Shown here one piece after another: positions 6,800 to 64,000 of a stretch of DNA of 64,000 nt (its first letter is position 1; every line of letters starts with the position of its first letter). The translations under genes were made by a program, and so were the position numbers. This stretch comes from an uncultured Clostridia bacterium (lineage in GTDB: Bacteria; Bacillota; Clostridia; TANB77; CAG-465), in assembly GCA_944388585.1 (NCBI GenBank), contig CALXJI010000007.1, positions 7,276 to 71,275 of the forward strand, given 5' to 3'. The notes below the pieces were generated by a model. The model did not search any database. It worked only from the letters and a program-made list of their open reading frames with translations, and was not told the origin of the DNA.

Positions 6800-7677
6800 T
6801 GATTGTACCTCAAACAAAAAATGGTATATTAAATATAGATAAGCCACAAGGAATTACATCACATGATGTAGTAGATGCAATAAGAAAAATTTTTCCAGAT
6901 CAAAAAGTAGGACATACTGGAACACTGGATCCTTTAGCGACAGGAGTATTACCAATTTGTATTGGTGAAGCTACAAAGTTAAGTGATAATTTAACTAGTG
7001 AAATAAAAAAGTATAGTGTAAAAATGCTACTTGGAGTAGAAACAGATACTTATGATATTACTGGAAGAATAGTATTTGCTAGTGTATTTAATAAAGATGA
7101 AATTTATATAAAAGAAAGAATAAAAAGATTTATTGGAAAACAACAGCAAATGCCTCCTAAATATAGCGCTATAAAAGTCGAAGGAAAAAAGCTCTATCAA
7201 TATGCTAGAGAAAATAAGGATGTAGAAATAAAACCTAGAGATATAGAAATATATAATATAGATAATATAAAAATAGATTTAGAATCAAAAGAGGTAGCTT
7301 TTGATGTAGAGTGTTCTAAGGGTACATATGTAAGAAGTTTAGTGAATGATATTGGTAAAAAAATAGGATGTGGAGCTACAATGACTGAGCTTAGAAGAAT
7401 ACGAACAGGTAATTTTAAAATTGAAGATAGTATTCCTTTGTATGACTTTTTAAAATTAGATTACATAGATATGCTTAATAAAGTAATAACAATAGAAGAT
7501 TATTATATTGAAAATAAAAAAATAACTTTATCAGATGATGAGCTTGGAAGATTTTTAAATGGAGTAAAATTTGAAGTTCAGTCTTCTGATCAAATTGTTA
7601 GAGTATATAATAAAGGAAAATATATAGGCCTTGGAATAGTAGAAAATAAAATATTAAAAAGATTTATTATTGAATAG
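6799..7677 (+). CDS. truB: tRNA pseudouridine(55) synthase TruB
   Basis: GHTGTLDP catalytic motif with a PUA-like C-terminus; operon context. Confidence 0.92.
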   Translation: MIVPQTKNGILNIDKPQGITSHDVVDAIRKIFPDQKVGHTGTLDPLATGVLPICIGEATKLSDNLTSEIKKYSVKMLLGVETDTYDITGRIVFASVFNKDEIYIKERIKRFIGKQQQMPPKYSAIKVEGKKLYQYARENKDVEIKPRDIEIYNIDNIKIDLESKEVAFDVECSKGTYVRSLVNDIGKKIGCGATMTELRRIRTGNFKIEDSIPLYDFLKLDYIDMLNKVITIEDYYIENKKITLSDDELGRFLNGVKFEVQSSDQIVRVYNKGKYIGLGIVENKILKRFIIE

Positions 7678-7712
7678 TACATTGTATATTTATTTGTGAA
7701 TAAAAAAATAAG

Positions 7713-7745
7713 CAATGCTCATATTATATAATATGAGCATTATTT
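7713..7745. terminator. bidirectional rho-independent terminator between truB and the convergent minus-strand gene
   Basis: AATGCTCATA at 7713-7722 pairs with TATGAGCATT at 7731-7740, with A/T runs on both sides. Confidence 0.6.
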
Positions 7746-8533
7746 TAATCTTTATTTTTCTTTTTTAACTTTTTTTGAATTTTTAAATCTTCTTTAAATT
7801 TATGAAGATCTAATTTAAATTCCTCTAATTGTTTTTTAAAATCTTTGAATTCAAAATTTGGAAATGCATCTAGTAATCTTTCTATTTGAATGTTTCTTTT
7901 AGAAATCAAATTTTTTCTAAATTCACTAAGTTCTTTATATAAATAAAAATCAGATAATTTGTGTTGTAAATGATTTTGACTTTTTATTTTTTCTGCTAAA
8001 TCATATAATAAAGATAATTTCTCTTTTAGATTTAATAAAGAAATTACAGTAGAGCATGTATCTATGGTCATTATAATAAGTAATACTGTAGAAATTAATT
8101 GTATTAAATCTGATGGTATTTTTGAGATTAATGTAGATATTATAGGATGAATTCCATATAGAATTACTAAACCTAAAATTCCAAATTCTAATGTATTTAA
8201 AAGGCATATTCTACCTTTAATATTAAATTTCATATTTGAATAATCCCACCATTTAGCATTAAATATTTTTTCTAAAATAAAACTTGTTATATATTCAAGA
8301 ATTGAAGTAGCTAGCATTCCGAGTACAAATACATATATTGGAGAATAAATGAAATATCCTAAAGTATATATTACAATTAGTGCTCCAAATCCATAGATTG
8401 GACAATATGGACCAAATAAAAATCCTCTATTTGTCCATCTGCCGTCTCCTATTCTACAATATAACGTTTCTACAATCCAACCTAATACACTATATATAAA
8501 AAAATATAAAAAAAGAATAAAAAAATTATTCAT
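7745..8533 (-). CDS. PF06541-type ('putative ABC-transporter type IV') polytopic membrane protein with a C-terminal K/E-rich coiled-coil tail
   Basis: GWIVETLY...GPYCPIYGFGAL signature shared with the paralog at 36432-37043; multiple TM helices. Confidence 0.7.
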   Translation of the reverse strand: MNNFFILFLYFFIYSVLGWIVETLYCRIGDGRWTNRGFLFGPYCPIYGFGALIVIYTLGYFIYSPIYVFVLGMLATSILEYITSFILEKIFNAKWWDYSNMKFNIKGRICLLNTLEFGILGLVILYGIHPIISTLISKIPSDLIQLISTVLLIIMTIDTCSTVISLLNLKEKLSLLYDLAEKIKSQNHLQHKLSDFYLYKELSEFRKNLISKRNIQIERLLDAFPNFEFKDFKKQLEEFKLDLHKFKEDLKIQKKLKKKNKD

Positions 8534-8662
8534 TTAATCACCTTAAAATTATTATATTAAATAGAATTATAAAAGTCAAATTTAAAATTGGATAAAAATT
8601 ACTGTATAAAAAAATATCTTGGTGAAAAAATAATAATGAAATAGAAAAATGGAGGAAAATGT

Positions 8663-11600
8663 ATGAAAACCAAGAAAAAGATTTTTTTATTAATTTTGAT
8701 TTTTTTATTTATATTAGCTCCTAAAAATATTATAGCACTTACTTCAGGAGCTTATATGTATGATAGAATATATGTTGGTGTACCAGAACATGATGAGGAA
8801 TTTGGATATCCCGCATTTTTTTGTTGTACATTAGATGGTGAAGAAGTATATTGTATTGAAATGGGAGTTAGCTTACATAAAGCTGAATACGCTGAATATG
8901 ATTATGATGATCCAAGCATAGGCTATGCATTAGTAGCTGATCATGGATATACAGATAATGATGCAGCAAATTATCAAATTAGGCAGGCAGTTATTTGGGC
9001 TTTGCTTGGTCAAATTGATATTGAAGGAATATATGCAGGTGATTCTGGGTGTGTTAGAGCTGCTAAAAAGTTGTATTATGATGCAAAAGAATATAAGGGG
9101 ACAGTTGAAAAGCCAAAAGTCTCAACAAGTTCTATAGAATTTGAAATAGATGGAAGTGAGTATGTATCAAATGCAATATCAGTTAGTAAATCAGAAGGAA
9201 ATGAATATTATGATATTAATTTAGGTGGATTCCCAGATGGAACCTATATTACAGATATGGATGGAGACAAAATGCAAACGGATGATATAACTTGGAATAG
9301 TGAATTCCAAATTAGGATTCCTCTTGAAGTTATAAAATATGATATAACAAATATAAACATGAAAGTAACAAGTACAGGAACTGTATATAATACCACTAAA
9401 GCATATCATGCACCAAAAGATGAAGCTTCACAAGAAGTACTATCTTCAAAGGCTGAATCTTCTAAAAAAACTAGTTCTGTATCATTTAAATTAGTTAAGC
9501 CAATAAAAGCGCAAGGAAGTTTAGAAGTTAAAAAATTAGATGAATATGGTAAAACAATAGCAGGAACTGTATTTAAAATAACTAATGGAACTGAAACTTT
9601 TACACAAAGTACAGGATCTGATGGTATTGCAAGATTTATAGATTTACCAGTTGGTAAGTATACTATAACTGAAACTAGTGCAACAGATGGTTATTTTAAT
9701 GATAAAGTAGATATAACAGCAAATGTAATAGCAGGACTTACAGTAAATGTAGAAAAAACGAACAAGGAAAGTAATGGAAATGTTAAAATTATAAAAAGAG
9801 ATGCTGAAACTGGAGAAATACCTCAAGGTGATGCAAAATTATCTGGAGCAGTATACAAAGTATATGCAAATGAGGATATATATGCAGCAAATAAAATAAA
9901 TAAATTATTTTCTAAAGGTGATGAGGTAGGAACATGTACTACTGGTGAAGATGGAACTACAAATTCTATACAATTACCTTTGGGAAAATATAAATATAGA
10001 GAAGTTTCAGCTTCTGAAGGATATATTTTAAATGATGAAGAAATTGAATTTACAATTGAATATGATAATCAATATGTTGAGCTCGTAGATAAGACTTTTA
10101 CTAGTAAAGAAAATGTTAAAAGAAATAGTATAGAAATTATAAAAAAATTACAAGCAACAGATTCGACTCCACAGCAAAATCTTGCTGGTGCAAAGTTTTC
10201 AGCAACTTTAAAAAGTGATAGAAGTAAAGTATACTATTCAACTGTAACAGACAATAATGGATATTGTATAATTGAAAATTTACCTTATGGAACATATGAA
10301 ATCGAAGAAGTTGAAGTACCTGTAAATGCTTTAAAAATAGAAAATTTTGATGTTTTTATAGAAGAAGATTCATCAGAAAGAGAACCATATAGATATACTA
10401 AAGAAGATGTAGCTAAAAAAATGCAAATAACAATATATAAAGAAGATAGAGAAACTGGAACAGAAACTCAAGGTGATGCAAGACTTGAAGAAGCAGAATA
10501 TACTATATATAGAGATGAGGCATTAACAGATGCTATTGAAACTGTAAAAATAAGTAAACAAGATGATGGAACATATAGTGCAAAAACTGGATATTATTTA
10601 ATAGGAAAATATTATATAAAGGAGACTAAAAGGCCTGAAGGATATTTAGCAGACGAAGAAATTCATATTATAGAACAATTAGGAGAAAATCAAACAGAGG
10701 AAATATCTTATCATGAAATTACATCTACAGAACCTGTAGAAAGGGGAAATATATATATAGTAAAATATCAAGAAAATAATACAAATGAAGGAGAAGGATC
10801 AACTACTAAACCACCTGCAACAGGAGTTGAACTTACATTGACATTAAATTCAGATCCTTCAGTTTCATATAAATCAGTAGTAAATGATATTGGATATGCA
10901 GAATTTATAGATATACCTTATGGATGGTATACGATAACTGAAACAAAAAGCTTAGAATTTGTAGACATCATGGATCCACAAGCAGTATATGTATCATATG
11001 AAGGTCAAACTCTACATTATATTGTAGAAGACCCAAGATATGAAAGAAAATTAAAAATAGTAAAAAAAGATTCTGAGACAGAAAATACAATACCGCTTGC
11101 TGGCGCAACTTTTAAAGTATGGGATGTAGCTACAAAGCAATATATTAGTCAAGTAGTAAACTATCCTACACAAACACAAATTGACGAATTTATAACATCA
11201 AATGATGGAACACTGACTTTACCAGAAGGATTAATACCTGGAGAGTATGAATTAGAAGAAGTATCAGCACCTTATGGATATGTTTTAAATACATCTAGAG
11301 TGCCGTTTACAATTGATGCGACAACTCCAGAAGAACCAGAATATATAGAACTTACAACAGTAGAATTTCCAGATACTCCTCAAAAAGCAAGGATCATAGT
11401 ATATAAAAAAGGTGAAGTTGTTACATCTTCTAAGAAAGAAGATGATATGATAAGACCTGTATATGAAGAAATGGGATTACAAGGTGTAGAATATACAATA
11501 AAAGCAGTAGAAAATATAACAACACCAGATGGATCTGTTAGAATGTATGAAGGAGATACAATCACTTTTGTAACAGATAAGGATGGAATAGGAAAATCAC

Positions 11601-13364: not shown

Positions 13365-16300
13365 ATGAAAATAAGTAAGCTTAAATATGTATTTGCTTTT
13401 ATATTAATGGTAGCTGTAGCTACTGTAACTAATAGTGCAAAAGCAGTTACAATGCCAAATAATGGTCAAATTACAATAAGTACTATTATTGCATCACAGC
13501 TTGCTGCAATAGAAGATGGCGATGAACCATCAGATAGTACATATCAAAATTTAGTTTACCTTTTCAATTCCGGTTATTCTACAAGTGGTAGTGCACTTGG
13601 ACCTGCTATGAATCCAGTTTATTCATATTCAGTAGAAGATACTACAACTGGAATATACTCTAAAGTTTATGGCTTAAATTATGGAAATTCTGCAATTAAC
13701 AGAGAGGGAGTAGAGTATACAGGAATCGGAAATGGCAGCTATGCAGATAATAAAATTGGTCTTGGTTTAGCTTTCGGTTTAAATTATTTAAGCTCAGAAC
13801 AAGCTTCTAATCAGGAAGTTGTAGGCGCAGATGTACAAGCTTCATCAATCGCTACACAAATGTATATATGGATAGTAAATGCAGGTTTATTAGGAACTCC
13901 TGCTGAAACAGAAGTTGTTAATGCAAACTTAACAGGAAATGCATTAGCAAGATATTATAATATTAGAAATTCAGTAGAACAAGCTTCTGCTAACCCATCA
14001 TATACATATTCTTCAGTAGAAGAAGCTAAACAACATCCAATTGAAATGAATTGGAATGATGCAATGGGTAGATACGAATATACAGTAACTGATTCAAATG
14101 GACTTGAAACAATGGCTTTAGTTGCTTTATATATTGATGAAAACCCAAATATTTCTTATAGTAAGAATGGAGATTCAGTAACATTCTTTACAACTGAACA
14201 AGTTGGAACAATAGATAATCCAGAATGTATAACAGTTCGTAAATCTATAAATAATGGTCGTTGGGTACCAGGATATGCAACAACTGTAGATAATGGTCAA
14301 CAACTAGTATATTTATCTGGTAGACAAAATGCTAATAGCGATACTTATGTTAGTTTCTATACTAATGCTTTAAGAGTTCAAGTAACAAAAACACTTGGAG
14401 ATATTGATGCAAATCATAATACAGGAGATGCTACAGTAGCAGGTGCTGTATATGGAATATATACTGATTATGATTGTACTCAATTAGTACAAGAAATAAC
14501 AACAGATGCTAATGGTATTGCAACATCTAGACCATTAGAAGATAGAGATTACTATGTAAAAGAAATATCTCAACCAGAAGGAACAAAAATAGATGGAACA
14601 ACATATACAGCTAGAGCAGCAGATGCTCAAGATGTAAATGGTCAAAAAATTGTAAACGTTAATTCTAAAAACCAAGTAATTTATGGTGGATTTAGAATGA
14701 TTGTTTCAATTAGTGATTTAACTGGTGATACTACTAAAGAACCAGCAGTTGGATCAGTAATGAAATTAACATTAAATTCAAATCCAGATGAATATTATAC
14801 AGAAACTGTTGATGAGCATGGATATGTTGATTTTACAGACATACCATATGGTCATTATACATGTACTGAAATAGAAAAAGTAAAACCAGAATTAGACTTT
14901 ATGGATCCATTACCAATATATATTAACTCTGAAGAAACATTTATTTATTCAAAATTAGTAAATACTGAAGTAGCACAAAGATATGTAAGAATAGAAAAAC
15001 AAGATGCTGAATCTGGAAAAATAATTCCAATGGCTAACACAGTATTCCAAGTTAGAGATTCAGAGGGAAATCTTGTAATTCAAAGTATTAAATATCCAGA
15101 AGTACAAGAATTATCTTATTATACAACAGATGAAAAAGGATATTTAGTAATGCCTGAAAAACTTCCATATGGAGAATATACTGTTTATGAAGTAACTGCT
15201 CCAGATGGGTATTATAATGAGCATGCAACAGATGGACAACCTTCTGCAACATTTAATGTTGAATCTAATACTGTTGAAAATCCAGATAAAGATGCTCAAG
15301 TTGTAACTATAGTTAAAAATATGCCACAAAAGGTTAATTTAACTATAAGAACAACAGGACAAGTATTAGTAAATCCTAATGAACAACAATCTAACGGATA
15401 TACAATACAAGCTCCAGCATATGGATCAGGTGCTATACCAGGAGCAAAATATGAATTAACTGCTAAAACAGATATAAAAACTGGTGACGGAGAAATCCAT
15501 ATGGCAGCTGGGGAAACAGTAACTCTTACTGCAAATGAAAATGGTGTAATAACAACAAAATTATATTTAGGTAGTTATACATTAAAACAAGTATCTGTTC
15601 CAGAAGGATATGTTTTAGATTCTACACCAAGAGATCTAACATATACTTATAAAGGACAAACTATTCTTGAACAAAATGATACAATAACATATTCTAATGT
15701 AAGACAGGAATATGAAGTACATCTTAAAAAAGAATTTGCAGATCTTAACTTCTATAGACAAAATGAAAATGAGCCATCTATAGAATCTGCAGAATTAGAA
15801 GAATATGCAGATGTAATAATTGGAATTTATGCTGCTGAAGATATCACAGATTTACAAGGTAATGTTAGAATTGAAGAAGGCGATTTAGTAGATATTGTAA
15901 CTGTAAATAATGATGGAACTGCAATGGTTAATGTAAGTTTACCAACAGGAAACTTCTATGCTAAAGAGCTTGAAACTAATGAAAATTATGTTGTAAGTGA
16001 AAAAGAGTATCCAATTGTTGCAAAACCACAAGATAATGTAAATCAACTATTTAGAATAGATGTTGAGACTATAGTAAATGAAGCTAAAAAGGTTACTAAA
16101 TTTACTTTAGTTAAAGTAGAAGATACAGGAATTGAAGCAAATCAAGAAAATGAGAGATCTTTACTTGAAGCTGTAGAAGAATTTGCTGAAGGCGTTTTAG
16201 AAGGCGTATTTGGTAATACAGATGAAACAGTAGATGTTACAAGACTTGAGGGTGCTAAATATGCTGTATACTATGTAGGTAATGGCGGAGATTATCCTTT

Positions 16301-47830: not shown

Positions 47831-47907
<77 letters not shown>

Positions 47908-59424: not shown

Positions 59425-59501
59425 GGTGGATATAGTTCAGTTGGTAGAGCGCCAGTTTGTGGCACTGGATGTCGTGGGTTCAAGTCCCACTATTCACCCC
59501 A
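59425..59501 (+). tRNA. tRNA-His (anticodon GTG) with genome-encoded G-1
   Basis: Hand fold: G-1 plus acceptor GTGGATA/TATTCAC, D-arm GTTC-AGTTGGTA-GAGC, anticodon loop TTGTGGC, T-loop TTCAAGT, discriminator C, CCA. Confidence 0.85.
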
Positions 59502-59513
59502 GTACTTATATAT

Positions 59514-59588
59514 TGGGCTGTCGCCAAGCGGTAAGGCACTAGACTTTGACTCTAGCATGCGCTGGTTCGAATCCAGCCAGCCCAGCCA
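59514..59588 (+). tRNA. tRNA-Gln (anticodon TTG)
   Basis: Hand fold: acceptor TGGGCTG/CAGCCCA, 3-bp D-stem GCC/GGC, anticodon loop CTTTGAC, T-loop TTCGAAT, CCA. Confidence 0.85.
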
Positions 59589-60458: not shown

Positions 60459-61106
60459 ATGAAAGTATTAGTAACAGGAACATCAAGTGGAATAGGTAAA
60501 GCTATAGCTATTAAATTTTTATCTGAGGGGCATAATGTAGTAGGAATAGATATAAAAGATTCAACAATAAATAGTAAATTATATTCACATATAAAAAAAG
60601 ATATATGTTCTAAAGATTTACCAGAAATATTAAATGTAGATATATTAATAAATAATGCAGGAGTTCAAAATACTCAAAATGATATAGATGTTAATTTAAA
60701 AGGGACTATTAATATTACAGAAAAGTATGGAATACAGCCTAATATAAAATCTATTGTATTTATAGCTTCTGCAAGTGCTTCTACTGGAGCGGAATTTCCA
60801 GAGTATGCTGCAAGTAAAGGAGGAATAGTTACTTATATGAAAAATGTAGCTTTAAGAGTAGCTAAATATAATGCTACATCTAATAGTATATCTGCAGGAG
60901 GTGTTATAACACCTTTAAATGATCATATAATTAATGACCCAAAATTATGGCAAGAGGTTTTAAATGAAACTTTACTTAACAAATGGGCAAGTGCAGAAGA
61001 AATAGCGAATTTTACTTATTTTATTTCAGTAAATAATAAGAGTATGACAGGGCAAGATTTATTAATAGATAATGGAGAAGCATTAAAATCTAATTTTATT
61101 TGGTAA
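60459..61106 (+). CDS. SDR family oxidoreductase
   Basis: TGTSSGIGKAIA motif, NNAG, and an S...YxxxK triad (YAASK). Confidence 0.85.
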   Translation: MKVLVTGTSSGIGKAIAIKFLSEGHNVVGIDIKDSTINSKLYSHIKKDICSKDLPEILNVDILINNAGVQNTQNDIDVNLKGTINITEKYGIQPNIKSIVFIASASASTGAEFPEYAASKGGIVTYMKNVALRVAKYNATSNSISAGGVITPLNDHIINDPKLWQEVLNETLLNKWASAEEIANFTYFISVNNKSMTGQDLLIDNGEALKSNFIW

Positions 61107-61182
61107 AATAAAGATAATTATGTTAAATCATTTTTATGTGTTTTTAATAAAATTAAATATAAATTTATATGTATAAAATTTA

Positions 61183-61211
61183 TTGACTTGAAAAAAATAA
61201 TATGCTAAAAT
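61183..61211 (+). promoter_or_regulatory. sigma-A type promoter for the small RNA upstream of cas9
   Basis: TTGACT at 61183-61188, a 17-nt spacer, then TAAAAT at 61206-61211. Confidence 0.45.
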
Positions 61212-61217
61212 ATAAGT

Positions 61218-61344
61218 GTACTGTAAAGGTACAAATTATATCATAAATAAGATTAGTAGGTTAGTATAATAAGACTAATTTACGTCGTAAAGCACTGACT
61301 ATATAAGTAGTCATCTAGGACTAGCAATGCTAGTCCATTTTTTT
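61218..61344 (+). ncRNA. candidate tracrRNA (about 125 nt: promoter to hairpins to intrinsic terminator) directly upstream of cas9 on the same strand
   Basis: Hairpin TGACTA-TATAAG-TAGTCA at 61296-61313. Terminator GGACTAGC-AAT-GCTAGTCC with a 7-T run at 61318-61344. Two ATAAG motifs. The GCTAGTCC element resembles the SpCas9 tracrRNA nexus. Confidence 0.4.
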
Positions 61345-61439
61345 ATTTTTATATAAGTTTACATAAAACTAAACATTTTTATTGACTTTTGATTAAAAAA
61401 TATAGTAAAATTGCTATATAATTTCTAGGAGGATAAAAT

Positions 61440-64000
61440 ATGGATTATAAAATAGGGTTAGATTTAGGAATAAGTTCAGTAGGATGGGCAGTTATCCAAA
61501 CAGATTGTGATGGAAATCCAGTAAAAATTGAAAATCTTGGATCAAGAATTTTTGATAAAGCTGAAAATCCTAAAGATGGATCTTCTTTAGCTTTAAAAAG
61601 GCGAGAAGCAAGAGGAGTAAGGAGAAGATTAAGAAGGAGAAGACATAGAAGAGACAGAGTTTTATCTCTTCTTGAAGAATATAATATTATTTCAAAAAAA
61701 GAAGTACAAGCAATGTTTAGTAATAGTGAATATAGATTTGAAAAAAATGTATATGAACTTAGAGTTGAAGGGCTTGATACATTATTGACTGCTAAAGAAT
61801 TAGCAAGAGTTTTAATAAATTTTGTAAAAAGAAGAGGATATAAATCTAATAGTATTTCCGAGGAAAAATCAGATAAGGATATAGGTAAATTATTAACTGC
61901 TACTGTTGAAAATGATAAAATTATGAAAGAGAATGATTACAAAACAGTAGCTCAAATGTATTTAAATGATGAAAGATTTACTACAAATAAAAATTTTAAT
62001 GATGGAAGAAAAATTTTAAAAATAAGAAATACAACAGATAGTTATACTTCTACAGTAAGAAGAAGTGATCTTGTAAATGAAATAAAGTTAATATTACAAA
62101 AGCAAAAAGAGCTAAATTCTAAAATAACAGATAAATTTATAGAAAAATATTTAAATATATTTGAATCTCAAAGAAGTTTCGAAGAAGGACCTGGTGGAGA
62201 TAGCCCATATGGTGGAAATCAAATAGAAAAAATGATCGGAAGATGTACATTAGAACCTAGAGAGCCACGAGCAGTAAAAGCATCATATACTTTTGAATAT
62301 TTTAAATTATTACAAGACATTAATCATATCAAACTCGAATGTAAAGAAAATATTGACGGAAAAGTAAAAAATATATCTAAGTCGCTTTCAAATGAACAAA
62401 GAAAAGAACTGATAAATCTTGCTAAAAAAAGTGATACAATATCTTTTGATAAAATAAGAAAAGTGTTAAATTTAGATTATAATGTTACTTTTAATATGGT
62501 AAATTATAACTTGAAAAAAGTTTCAAATATAGAAGATTTATTTAGCTTATCAGAAAAAGAGACTAAACTTAGGGAGTTTCAAAGTTATCATAAAATAAGA
62601 AAAATATTAGATAAAATAGAAAAAGGTATAGTAGATAAACTTTCTATAGATACTTTAAATAAATTAGCATATGCATTGTCCGTATTTAAAAATGATAAAA
62701 GTATAAAAAAATATTTAAAAGAAAACTGTAGAGAGTTAACAGATGAACTTATAGAAAATTTATTGGAGATTAGTTTTTCAAAAGTAGGAAACTTATCTAT
62801 TAAAGCTATGGAAAAGTTAATACCATTTTTAGAACAGGGTCTAACTTATGACAAAGCTGTTGAAAAAGTGTATGGAAAAGATGTAAATATAAATGTAAAG
62901 AGAAAGAATAAACTTTCATTTAATACTATTAAAGATGATATAACAAATCCAGTAGTAAAAAGAGCTGTATCTCAAACAATAAAAGTTGTAAATGCAATTG
63001 TAAACAAATATGGTGAACCTTTATGCATAAATATTGAGCTTGCAAGGGAACTTTCTAAAACATTTGAAGAGAGAAATAGAATAAGTAAAAAAAATGAAGA
63101 GAGAAAATCAGAAAATGAGAAAGCAAAACTAGAAATTCAAGAGATGGGAAAATTCAATGTCACAGGACAAGATATTATAAAATATAGACTTTGGAAAGAA
63201 CAAGATGAAATATGTATATATTCTGGACATAAAATAACACCAGATGAATTATTTACAGAGCTTGTAGATATTGATCATATAATTCCATACAGTATTTCTT
63301 TTGATGATACGTTTAATAATAAAGTATTGGTTTTATCTTCTGAAAATAGAAAAAAAGGCAATAGAGTTCCAATTGAATATTTAAGAAAAAATGGAATGCA
63401 TGTTGATGAATACAAATTAAGAATAGAGACTACATATATAAAGAAAAACAATTATAAAAAGTTAAAAAAATTGTTGGTTGAAGGAATAACAAGAGAAGAT
63501 ATAGATAATTTTAAAGAAAGAAATATAAAAGATACTCAGTATTTAAGTAGGCTTATGTATAATTTGCTTAGAAATAATTTAAAGTTTAAGAAAAATGATG
63601 GTATAAAAATAAAAGTACAAGCTGTAAACGGAGCAATAACATCTCATATTAGAAAAAGGCTTGGTATAGAAAAAATAAGAGCTAATGGAGATAAACATCA
63701 TGCAATAGATGCAGTTATAATAGCTATAATAACTCCTAAATTAATTCAAAGTATAACTAATTTTTATAAGTATAACGAATTAAAAAATTGTAATATTAAG
63801 GAAAATAAAATAATAAATGAAGAAACAGGAGAATATGTAGATTTAAGTAAATTTCCTCAACCTTATCAAGGATTTAGAGAAGAGCTTGAAATTAGAAGCT
63901 TACAAAATGAAAATTTAATGCATGAAGCTTTAAAAAATTCTAAATTAGTAAGATATACAGATATTGAAAATGTAAAACCGATTTTTGTTTCAAGAATGCC
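61440..64000 (+). CDS. cas9: Cas9 (type II CRISPR endonuclease), 5' portion; the ORF runs off the window end
   Basis: AGGAGG RBS. MDYKIGLDLGISSVGWAV is the RuvC-I motif with the catalytic Asp. RREARGVRRRLRRRRHRR is the Arg-rich bridge helix. HNH motifs DIDHIIPYS and NKVL..ENRKKGNRVP are present, as is the RuvC-III motif HHAIDAVIIA. More than 850 aa with no stop before 64000. Confidence 0.9.
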   Translation, partial: MDYKIGLDLGISSVGWAVIQTDCDGNPVKIENLGSRIFDKAENPKDGSSLALKRREARGVRRRLRRRRHRRDRVLSLLEEYNIISKKEVQAMFSNSEYRFEKNVYELRVEGLDTLLTAKELARVLINFVKRRGYKSNSISEEKSDKDIGKLLTATVENDKIMKENDYKTVAQMYLNDERFTTNKNFNDGRKILKIRNTTDSYTSTVRRSDLVNEIKLILQKQKELNSKITDKFIEKYLNIFESQRSFEEGPGGDSPYGGNQIEKMIGRCTLEPREPRAVKASYTFEYFKLLQDINHIKLECKENIDGKVKNISKSLSNEQRKELINLAKKSDTISFDKIRKVLNLDYNVTFNMVNYNLKKVSNIEDLFSLSEKETKLREFQSYHKIRKILDKIEKGIVDKLSIDTLNKLAYALSVFKNDKSIKKYLKENCRELTDELIENLLEISFSKVGNLSIKAMEKLIPFLEQGLTYDKAVEKVYGKDVNINVKRKNKLSFNTIKDDITNPVVKRAVSQTIKVVNAIVNKYGEPLCINIELARELSKTFEERNRISKKNEERKSENEKAKLEIQEMGKFNVTGQDIIKYRLWKEQDEICIYSGHKITPDELFTELVDIDHIIPYSISFDDTFNNKVLVLSSENRKKGNRVPIEYLRKNGMHVDEYKLRIETTYIKKNNYKKLKKLLVEGITREDIDNFKERNIKDTQYLSRLMYNLLRNNLKFKKNDGIKIKVQAVNGAITSHIRKRLGIEKIRANGDKHHAIDAVIIAIITPKLIQSITNFYKYNELKNCNIKENKIINEETGEYVDLSKFPQPYQGFREELEIRSLQNENLMHEALKNSKLVRYTDIENVKPIFVSRM

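Follow-up and report, generated by a model that had tools for sequence, protein, structure and literature searches.

The 64,000-nucleotide stretch of DNA analysed here (the window) ends inside what looks like a Cas9 gene, which raises the question of whether its last few kilobases hold the beginning of a working CRISPR-Cas system and, if so, of which subtype and with which guide RNAs. Taken together, the evidence makes it very likely that positions 61183-64000 form the 5′ portion of a CRISPR-Cas9 locus of type II-C that is complete and probably active. Everything said here about DNA past base 64000 comes from further assemblies of this species, not from the letters of the window.

The cas9 gene

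Frame 1 is free of stops from the ATG at 61440 for 853 codons, up to the last base of the window; the two other forward frames contain many. The initial annotation had a Cas9 gene starting here and running off the window, and explained its absence from the ORF lists by that run-off alone; both statements hold. An in-frame TAA directly 5′ of the ATG (61434-61436) and the AGGAGG just before it fix the start codon at 61440. The following features were assigned.

61382-61411, + strand: candidate cas9 promoter (TTGACT, 18-nt spacer, TAAAAT), 10 of 12 matches in a promoter scan, a match to consensus only
61427-61432, + strand: ribosome-binding site AGGAGG, 7 nt 5′ of the ATG, read from the sequence
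61440-64000, + strand: cas9 coding sequence, truncated by the end of the window after codon 853 of 1128 (open frame, profile matches, identical contigs)
61455-61490, + strand: RuvC-I motif GLDLGISSVGWA, residues 6-17, with catalytic Asp8 (GLDLG)
61599-61658, + strand: Arg-rich bridge helix RREARGVRRRLRRRRHRRDR, residues 54-73, after RuvC-I
63033-63050, + strand: RuvC-II motif IELARE, residues 532-537, aligned with the same motif in AtCas9 and the 9ar4 chains
63213-63371, + strand: HNH nuclease domain, residues 592-644 (Pfam HNH_4, 82.5 bits)
63696-63713, + strand: RuvC-III motif HHAIDA, residues 753-758 (Pfam RuvC_III at 689-817)

The TTGACT of the candidate promoter is also seen upstream of cas9 in three other loci (L011, L012 and L016). 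Against NCBIfam TIGR01865 the window fragment scores 689.6 bits (cutoff 100) over model positions 1-805 of 1070, and the full-length protein of identical sequence, P0001, scores 784.2 bits over positions 1-1070 of 1070; in Pfam the fragment also matches Cas9_a, at residues 264-414, and Cas9_RuvC. The split RuvC domain is complete, with motifs I, II and III, as defines a Cas9. Between RuvC-II and RuvC-III sits the HNH domain with its catalytic His and Asn motifs, namely DIDHIIP at residues 610-616 (DIDH 610-613), NNKVL at 626-630 and NRKKGN at 636-641. The gene and its motifs are thus established, and the RuvC-I, Arg-rich helix, HNH and RuvC-III motifs quoted earlier are all present. The HNH domain, however, begins near residue 590-610 and not at about 560 as had been estimated. 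We infer an active nuclease, whose HNH and RuvC sites would cleave matching DNA.

How the gene continues can be read from two same-species contigs, L003 and L008, which show 0 mismatches to the window across 333 nt upstream and 2561 nt of cas9. Past base 64000 they complete an 1128-residue Cas9 with a stop codon, followed by cas1, cas2 and a CRISPR array. A contig scan returned just one contig of the same species, L001 (6.7 kb), and a single distant match at 25%; the relatives surveyed comprise same-species contigs L003-L010 and eight diverged related loci. The WED/PAM-interacting part lies outside the window and could be inspected at full length in P0001, where residues 854-1128 align to AtCas9 and 9ar4 up to 1116-1119 and match Pfam CjCas9_PI_CTD (26.6 bits, cutoff 21.9).

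The tracrRNA gene and the origin of crRNAs

The window also contains a predicted tracrRNA gene, which sits just 5′ of the region covered by the initial annotation and had been overlooked there. Its parts, and one further conserved element, are listed below.

61183-61211, + strand: tracrRNA promoter, with -35 TTGACT (61183-61188), 17-nt spacer and TG-extended -10 TGcTAAAAT (61203-61211)
about 61217-61344, + strand: predicted tracrRNA, a primary transcript of about 128 nt with predicted ends
61217-61233, + strand: 5′ hairpin
61235-61270, + strand: anti-repeat ATTATATCATAAATAAGATTAGTAGGTTAGTATAAT, from repeat identity, pairing and co-variation
61273-61286, + strand: invariant GAC/GTC stem
61296-61313, + strand: hairpin
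61318-61336, + strand: terminator stem, with a T-run at 61338-61344
61357-61367, + strand: conserved motif GTTTACATAAA, lying past the tracrRNA terminator and ahead of the cas9 promoter

The repeat found downstream of cas2 is ATTATATCATAAATAAAATTAATAGAGAAGTATAAC, and 61235-61270 is the sole repeat-like site in the window, with 30/36 same-sense identity where the next best site has 24-25. It pairs with the minus-sense repeat at 34 of 36 positions, four G:U pairs included, forming a duplex of -33.9 kcal/mol compared with -8.4 ± 2.2 for shuffled sequences. The pairing is established, as is co-variation of anti-repeat and repeat in the eight related loci (46-82% Cas9 identity). The tail hairpins are conserved too, with compensatory changes among related loci. 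In the promoter, which scores 10 of 12 matches and has a TG preceding the -10, the columns TTGAC, TG and TA..AT are invariant among six related loci, and the terminator is the only terminator-like site in 61000-61500, shuffles yielding none. Rfam returned three tRNAs only and no tracrRNA when the whole window was searched at gathering thresholds, and nothing credible for a tracrRNA in an E-value search of 61100-61445.

Because the strand of the repeat that pairs with the anti-repeat at 34/36 positions is the minus strand, the crRNAs are read antisense to cas9. In that sense the repeat part of the crRNA starts GUUAUACUUCUCUAUUAAUUUUAU... and each 36-nt repeat in the window's lineage ends in TGATATAAT. 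Repeat variants of all the relatives end in TGG, TGT or TGA followed by TATAAT, that is in TGnTATAAT. In Neisseria meningitidis and Campylobacter jejuni each repeat carries a promoter, which frees the crRNA 5′ ends from dependence on RNase III (PMC5965381); in Clostridium cellulolyticum the last nine nucleotides of the CcCas9 repeat resemble an extended -10 element (PMC7038990). TGATATAAT stands at the equivalent repeat end here and, by sequence inference only, TGnTATAAT is probably an extended -10 promoter that starts each crRNA inside the next spacer.

There is perhaps something under one chance in three that the array is instead read from the minus strand as a single long precursor, which RNase III then cuts, the TGnTATAAT ends not being promoters. 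A generic sigma-70 -35/-10 scan of the array found no full promoter in the repeats and no -35 element, and the motif turns up often in this AT-rich genome, TGNTATAAT giving 20 matches where 14.4 are expected. Equally, the near-palindromic repeat termini (GTTATA...TATAAT) could be kept for spacer integration; more generally, the TATAAT end might be conserved owing to demands of the integrase or of Cas9 and not because it is a promoter. Yet a generic scan misses repeat promoters because these are without a -35 element. Furthermore, six repeat variants that otherwise differ greatly all have TGnTATAAT at one and the same terminal position, with only the ‘n’ varying, and identical motifs there have been tied to repeat promoters in the N. 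meningitidis, C. jejuni and C. cellulolyticum systems (PMC5965381, PMC7038990).

The locus of this very AT-rich uncultured bacterium runs in the order tracrRNA, cas9, cas1, cas2, array. The tracrRNA would be made from the + strand by its own extended -10 promoter and end at an intrinsic terminator ahead of the cas9 promoter, and minus-strand transcription of the array would run against the direction of the cas genes. Each repeat end TGATATAAT would serve as an extended -10 promoter from which a crRNA starts inside the next spacer and, if the repeats do carry promoters, crRNA 5′ ends would be independent of RNase III. The repeat part of the crRNA would then pair with the anti-repeat, Cas9 would bind the duplex, and HNH and RuvC would cut matching DNA.

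The array in different strains

Neither Tandem Repeats Finder nor a repeat-match scan detected a CRISPR array inside the 64-kb window. In the related contigs the array, built of 36-nt repeats and 30-nt spacers, starts about 100 nt past cas2, and the main array in the window's own lineage has between 3 and 13 repeats. Sister strains have 8-13 repeats there, with strain-specific cas2-proximal spacers; a degenerate repeat marks the array end far from cas2, and new spacers are at the cas2-proximal end. Spacer acquisition appears to be ongoing because the cas2-proximal spacers vary between strains and the distal ones are common to them.

In L005 and L006, independently assembled strains, a detached array copy lies about 1.5 kb beyond the main array, and the 1495-nt block between CRISPR repeats encodes PcfM-like, DUF3848 and DUF1287 genes; a gap of about 550 nt divides the array of L014. 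In L003 and L008 the array abuts GC-richer, plasmid-like and unrelated DNA, in which an ORF resembling the omega repressor and AATCACA heptad repeats are seen. In a different part of the locus, GTTTACATAA within the motif GTTTACATAAA is invariant across six aligned loci (63-100% Cas9 identity), the 11th base being A in five of the six (L012 lacks it), and GTTTACATAAA is not present in relatives at 46-55% Cas9 identity. It is a speculative and rather doubtful proposal that conjugative or plasmid DNA may recombine at the array in this lineage and, separately, that GTTTACATAAA could be an undescribed cas9 control site.

As to targets, a 30/30 match links one spacer to a conjugative TraG/VirD4 gene, and at least one target is a conjugative element. 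A search of 18 concatenated spacers against 50,697 phage records gave sub-significant matches of 22-27 nt only. Five exact scans of viral contigs picked up one 20-mer spacer match, in L020, which was set aside as chance since it does not continue into the spacer's remaining 10 nt. The single protospacer is present as a spacer in both orientations; no PAM was derived from it, its 3′ flanks AGGATGTT and GCACCTGA being without a clear common motif.

These strain comparisons bear on whether cas9 in the window's strain is decaying or orphaned, its first 853 codons intact in a system made non-functional by loss or disruption of the array or adaptation genes. In L003/L008, whose sequence is that of the window over this stretch, the array has just three repeats and two spacers and abuts the omega-repressor-like and heptad DNA, so the array of the window's strain may be short or disrupted. 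Decay is nevertheless improbable. The initial annotation had named a premature stop, degenerate motifs or an orphan cas9 as signs against its reading; all were looked for, and none was found. Every catalytic motif is intact, all 15 listed proteins from a cluster of 79 members are 1128 residues long, and cas9, cas1 and cas2 are full length in L003/L008 with the array behind them. Moreover, the long arrays and strain-specific cas2-proximal spacers of the sister strains speak against decay.

A slightly poorer prospect still is that the array is read from the + strand, via a leader after cas2, with the tracrRNA coming from the minus strand of 61235-61270. Such an arrangement would suit the cas2-proximal addition of spacers and the distal degenerate repeat, which in many systems mark a leader on the cas2 side. 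Under it, four positions that form G:U pairs in the favoured orientation turn into A-C mismatches, which weakens the pairing from -33.9 to -23.4 kcal/mol. In addition, the minus-strand transcript would be without a terminator and folds weakly, at -9.0, while the conserved promoter, the tail hairpins and the terminator are all on the + strand. The crRNA-sense repeat, GTT...AAT, is like that of CcCas9, which is read opposite to the cas genes (PMC7038990).

Subtype and known relatives

Behind cas9, the contigs identical to the window encode a Cas1 of 299 residues (TIGR03639 cas1_NMENI, 284 bits) and then a Cas2 of 106 residues (TIGR01573, 88.8 bits), called Cas1_II and Cas2_II by PADLOC. The operon consists of cas9, cas1 and cas2 only in the same-species contigs L003-L010 and the eight diverged relatives, and neither csn2 nor cas4 is present at any of these loci. 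Thus, of what had been expected past 64000, cas1, cas2 and the array were found, but csn2 and cas4 were in none of the loci. In the absence of csn2 and cas4, the layout is that of type II-C. Sequence matches against solved Cas9 structures go down to E = 1e-236, and II-C enzymes come first in the PDB ranking, which is a ranking of sequence matches and not a tree.

Other subtypes were rejected: II-A for want of csn2 and of any ORF between cas2 and the array, II-B for want of cas4 in any locus, and II-D (Cas9d, NCBIfam NF049971) for a score of 123 bits against a cutoff of 375. The initial alternatives of ‘II-C-like or small II-A’ are thereby narrowed to the former: a small II-A locus like those of SaCas9 or St1Cas9, with csn2 downstream, is hardly credible, since the St1Cas9 and SaCas9 chains match at 254 and 235 bits but II-C structures at 570-791, some three times higher, and no gene occupies the gap of about 100 nt between cas2 and array in the same-species contigs or the eight relatives.

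The enzyme had also been described as compact, which is fair beside the 1368-residue SpCas9 chains but not beside chains of SaCas9, NmeCas9 or CjCas9 length, all shorter than its 1128 residues. Its top match among solved structures is the II-C enzyme AtCas9 of Alicyclobacillus tengchongensis (PDB 9WAC/9WAD/21DZ/21EA; 791 bits over residues 1-1119), with the same domain order of RuvC-I, bridge helix, small REC lobe, RuvC-II, HNH, RuvC-III and WED/PI. AtCas9 differs in its thermophilic source and its chain of 1154 residues, and the two sequences are far from identical; the AtCas9 PAM (N4CNNN or N4RNNA) is not transferable to the window enzyme. Full-length alignments were also obtained to the II-C chains 8uza, 8uzb, 9ar4 and 8jtj, of GeoCas9/ThermoCas9 length (705-720 bits), and to 6jdq and others, of NmeCas9 length (about 570 bits); these names go with the PDB codes, the database label being just ‘Cas9’ in each case. 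These chains have 1082-1095 residues; additional residues in the window protein fall in the REC lobe and between RuvC-III and PI.

This is, then, an ordinary, textbook II-C locus holding one more uncharacterised, mid-size Cas9 from an uncultured gut lineage. Standard annotation would call the cas9 gene, and no long-standing question is opened by it. Since the crRNA and tracrRNA sequences can be derived directly from the analysis, the enzyme could be tried for editing. The position of the tracrRNA in N. meningitidis and C. jejuni differs from that seen here. The same locus logic is found in the II-C system of C. cellulolyticum H10, where a tracrRNA upstream, the order cas9-cas1-cas2 and an array opposite to the cas genes have been shown experimentally (PMC7038990). 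The likeness is one of layout and repeat end, and the NNNNGNA PAM is a feature of CcCas9 itself.

The Cas9 locus and its subtype

The window ends within a gene for Cas9, as the initial annotation had claimed. From the ATG at 61440 (+) the translated frame is open for 853 codons to base 64000, while in the remaining two forward frames a stop appears every few codons, as expected at about 25% G+C. The fragment scores 689.6 bits against the NCBIfam model TIGR01865 (cutoff 100). Its alignment takes in model positions 1-805 of 1070, so that roughly one quarter of the protein should lie beyond the window. Pfam matches HNH_4 at residues 592-644 (82.5 bits), along with RuvC_III, Cas9_RuvC and the Cas9 alpha-helical lobe. 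All the Cas9 motifs first quoted can be placed on the protein, the only numerical slip being the start of the HNH domain, put at about 560 residues and actually at about 590-610.

Start signals and motifs of cas9 in the window
61427-61432 (+), AGGAGG preceding the ATG
61434-61436 (+), in-frame TAA preceding the ATG
Residues 6-17, GLDLGISSVGWA
Residues 54-73, arginine-rich helix
Residues 532-537, IELARE
Residues 610-616, DIDHIIP
Residues 626-630, NNKVL
Residues 636-641, NRKKGN
Residues 753-758, HHAIDA

The remainder of the locus can be read from eight contigs of the same species in other assemblies. Two of these (L003 and L008) match the window base for base across the 2561 nt of cas9 and the 333 nt ahead of it, and L003 also has the window's upstream genes (NrdD, RNase R, TrmB, Vut_1 transporter and SDR). 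The database protein P0001 (1128 aa) is 100% identical to the window Cas9 over 853 residues, and the 15 listed among the 79 members of its cluster are all of 1128 aa. In all eight, cas1 (299 aa; TIGR03639 cas1_NMENI, 284 bits) and then cas2 (106 aa; TIGR01573, 88.8 bits) come after cas9; about 100 nt past cas2 in the same-species contigs begins a CRISPR array, whose repeat of 36 nt is ATTATATCATAAATAAAATTAATAGAGAAGTATAAC and whose spacers measure 30 nt. The cas1, cas2 and array foreseen beyond 64000 are thus present in these contigs. The csn2 or cas4 also allowed for there are found neither in the same-species contigs nor in eight relatives of 46-78% Cas9 identity, which keep the cas9-cas1-cas2 layout in unrelated genomic neighbourhoods.

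Both this layout and the similarity to solved structures point to type II-C.

Similarity to solved Cas9 structures
AtCas9, type II-C, aligned over residues 1-1119: 791 bits
Chains of 1082-1095 aa (GeoCas9/ThermoCas9 length): 705-720 bits
Chains of NmeCas9 length: about 570 bits
St1Cas9: 254 bits
SaCas9: 235 bits
CjCas9: 210 bits
SpCas9: 75 bits

Of the original suggestion of a II-C-like or small II-A enzyme, the first half holds and the second falls, given a locus without csn2 and scores for St1Cas9 and SaCas9 of 254 and 235 bits against 791 for AtCas9. The model for Cas9d scored far under its cutoff. The system, an intact type II-C Cas9 locus from a gut lineage not yet cultured, is of a well-known kind and of low surprise; the subtype, a tracrRNA gene inside the window, the orientation of the array and probable promoters in its repeats are what is added here.

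A predicted tracrRNA gene upstream of cas9

One site of the window resembles the repeat, and it lies in the 333-nt gap before cas9, at 61235-61270. It matches the plus-strand repeat in the same sense at 30 of 36 positions; the runner-up anywhere in the window reaches 24-25. The site is therefore complementary to the minus-strand repeat reading, GTTATACTTCTCTATTAATTTTATTTATGATATAAT, and can form 34 of the 36 pairs with it, the six differences becoming four G:U wobbles and two positions in a small internal loop. The duplex is predicted at -33.9 kcal/mol, compared with -8.4 ± 2.2 when the anti-repeat is shuffled and -23.4 when the strands are assigned the other way round.

Predicted signals around the anti-repeat
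61183-61211, promoter upstream of the anti-repeat (TTGACT, 17 nt, TGcTAAAAT)
61318-61336, terminator stem, with seven T, downstream of the anti-repeat; the region's only terminator-like site

Comparison of related loci confirms this predicted gene, which the initial annotation had overlooked. In five of them (L011, L012, L014, L016 and L018) an anti-repeat lies on the plus strand 196-217 nt upstream of the cas9 ATG and pairs at 33-34 of 36 positions with the repeat of its own locus, with matched changes in the two across loci (for example T to C at repeat position 7). Three more distant relatives (L021, L022 and L023) have strongly divergent repeats, and the upstream anti-repeat is altered along with them. 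The promoter hexamers are invariant in an alignment of six related loci (columns TTGAC, TG and TA..AT), as is a GAC/GTC stem in the tail among aligned loci. Inner pairs of the tail hairpin vary in compensatory fashion, the terminator hairpin varies in sequence with its pairing kept, and double changes are seen in 7 of the 18 predicted tracrRNA pairs. No Rfam family recognises the predicted RNA.

The 5' leader contains a small GTAC...GTAC hairpin (61217-61233). Its loop in the same five loci, upstream of their anti-repeats, is ATAGAGAAG, a same-sense repeat fragment, and in the window has decayed to TGTAAAG. Given this fragment, the tracrRNA gene looks like the remnant of a partial repeat adjoining a full one. 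The minus strand of 61235-61243 carries TGATATAAT, a promoter-like site inside the gene and directed away from cas9, probably a by-product of repeat-derived sequence.

Between this gene and cas9 lies a conserved motif (61357-61367) made up of GTTTACATAA, invariant in the window and the five loci (63-100% Cas9 identity), and a final A that L012 alone of the six aligned loci lacks. The motif lies 18-21 nt past the tracrRNA terminator and a variable 15-29 nt ahead of the cas9 -35 element. The motif was not found in relatives of 46-55% Cas9 identity, where cas9 comes directly after the tracrRNA gene and has no promoter of its own.

Array orientation and candidate repeat promoters

Since the predicted tracrRNA is on the plus strand, the crRNAs would have to be minus-strand transcripts, antisense to cas9-cas1-cas2. 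The crRNA-sense end of every repeat is TGATATAAT, a perfect extended -10 element, and all six repeat variants in relatives end in TGnTATAAT, variation being confined to the free position. The repeat termini are near-palindromic, and their ends could be conserved for integration, not transcription. A generic -35/-10 scan of the repeats gave no match, and the extended -10 motif is no rarity here, the genome having 20 matches where 14.4 would be expected. The strand logic, the TGnTATAAT ends and the precedents of Clostridium cellulolyticum, Neisseria meningitidis and Campylobacter jejuni nevertheless make it fairly probable that each repeat initiates a crRNA a few nt inside the neighbouring spacer. 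RNA sequencing of the C. cellulolyticum system placed the tracrRNA upstream of the cas genes and the array in the opposite direction to them, and the final nine nucleotides of its repeat resemble an extended -10 element (PMC7038990); in N. meningitidis and C. jejuni the 5' ends of crRNAs arise from repeat-embedded promoters and need no RNase III (PMC5965381). The architecture is thus already described.

Spacers, targets and array surroundings

The arrays of L005 and L006 have four cas2-distal spacers in common and differ in the cas2-proximal ones; together with the degenerate distal repeat, this indicates that new spacers are inserted next to cas2. No true protospacer was found in the phage records or viral contigs searched. 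A metagenome scan gave a 30/30 spacer match, without flanking repeats, in two contigs (L024, 2093-2122, and L025), inside a TraG/VirD4-type coupling-protein gene neighboured by TrbL and a pilin-like gene, so that the predicted target of this spacer is a conjugative element. The same 30-bp protospacer occurs as a spacer in one orientation in L005 and L007 and in the other in L006, all of one species, which would reflect either an acceptable PAM on both flanks or one flipped integration. The candidate 3' flanks AGGATGTT and GCACCTGA have no clear common motif, and therefore no PAM is stated.

In L005 (about 7186-8780) and L006 (about 7506-9036), assemblies differing by SNPs, 1495 nt carrying minus-strand PcfM-like, DUF3848 and DUF1287 genes come after the degenerate last repeat. 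Past this block stand one more perfect repeat, roughly 30 nt of spacer and a degenerate sequence resembling the repeat. Inserted DNA, possibly plasmid-derived, appears to split the array. In L003 (14933-15207) the array has only three repeats and gives way to DNA richer in GC, where an omega-repressor-like ORF is found together with tandem AATCACA/TGTGATT heptads (15094-15157) similar to the omega operator repeats of Inc18-type plasmids; the contig ends about 275 nt further on. In L014 (68% Cas9 identity) the array forms two blocks, 8778-9210 and 9726-10550, separated by about 550 nt with small minus-strand ORFs.

The window has three plus-strand tRNA genes (59426-59585 and 47831-47904), two of which form a tandem pair some 1.9 kb ahead of cas9, flanked by trmB and the gene for the Vut_1 transporter. 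Its genes are nearly all on the plus strand, and its GC skew is strongly positive.
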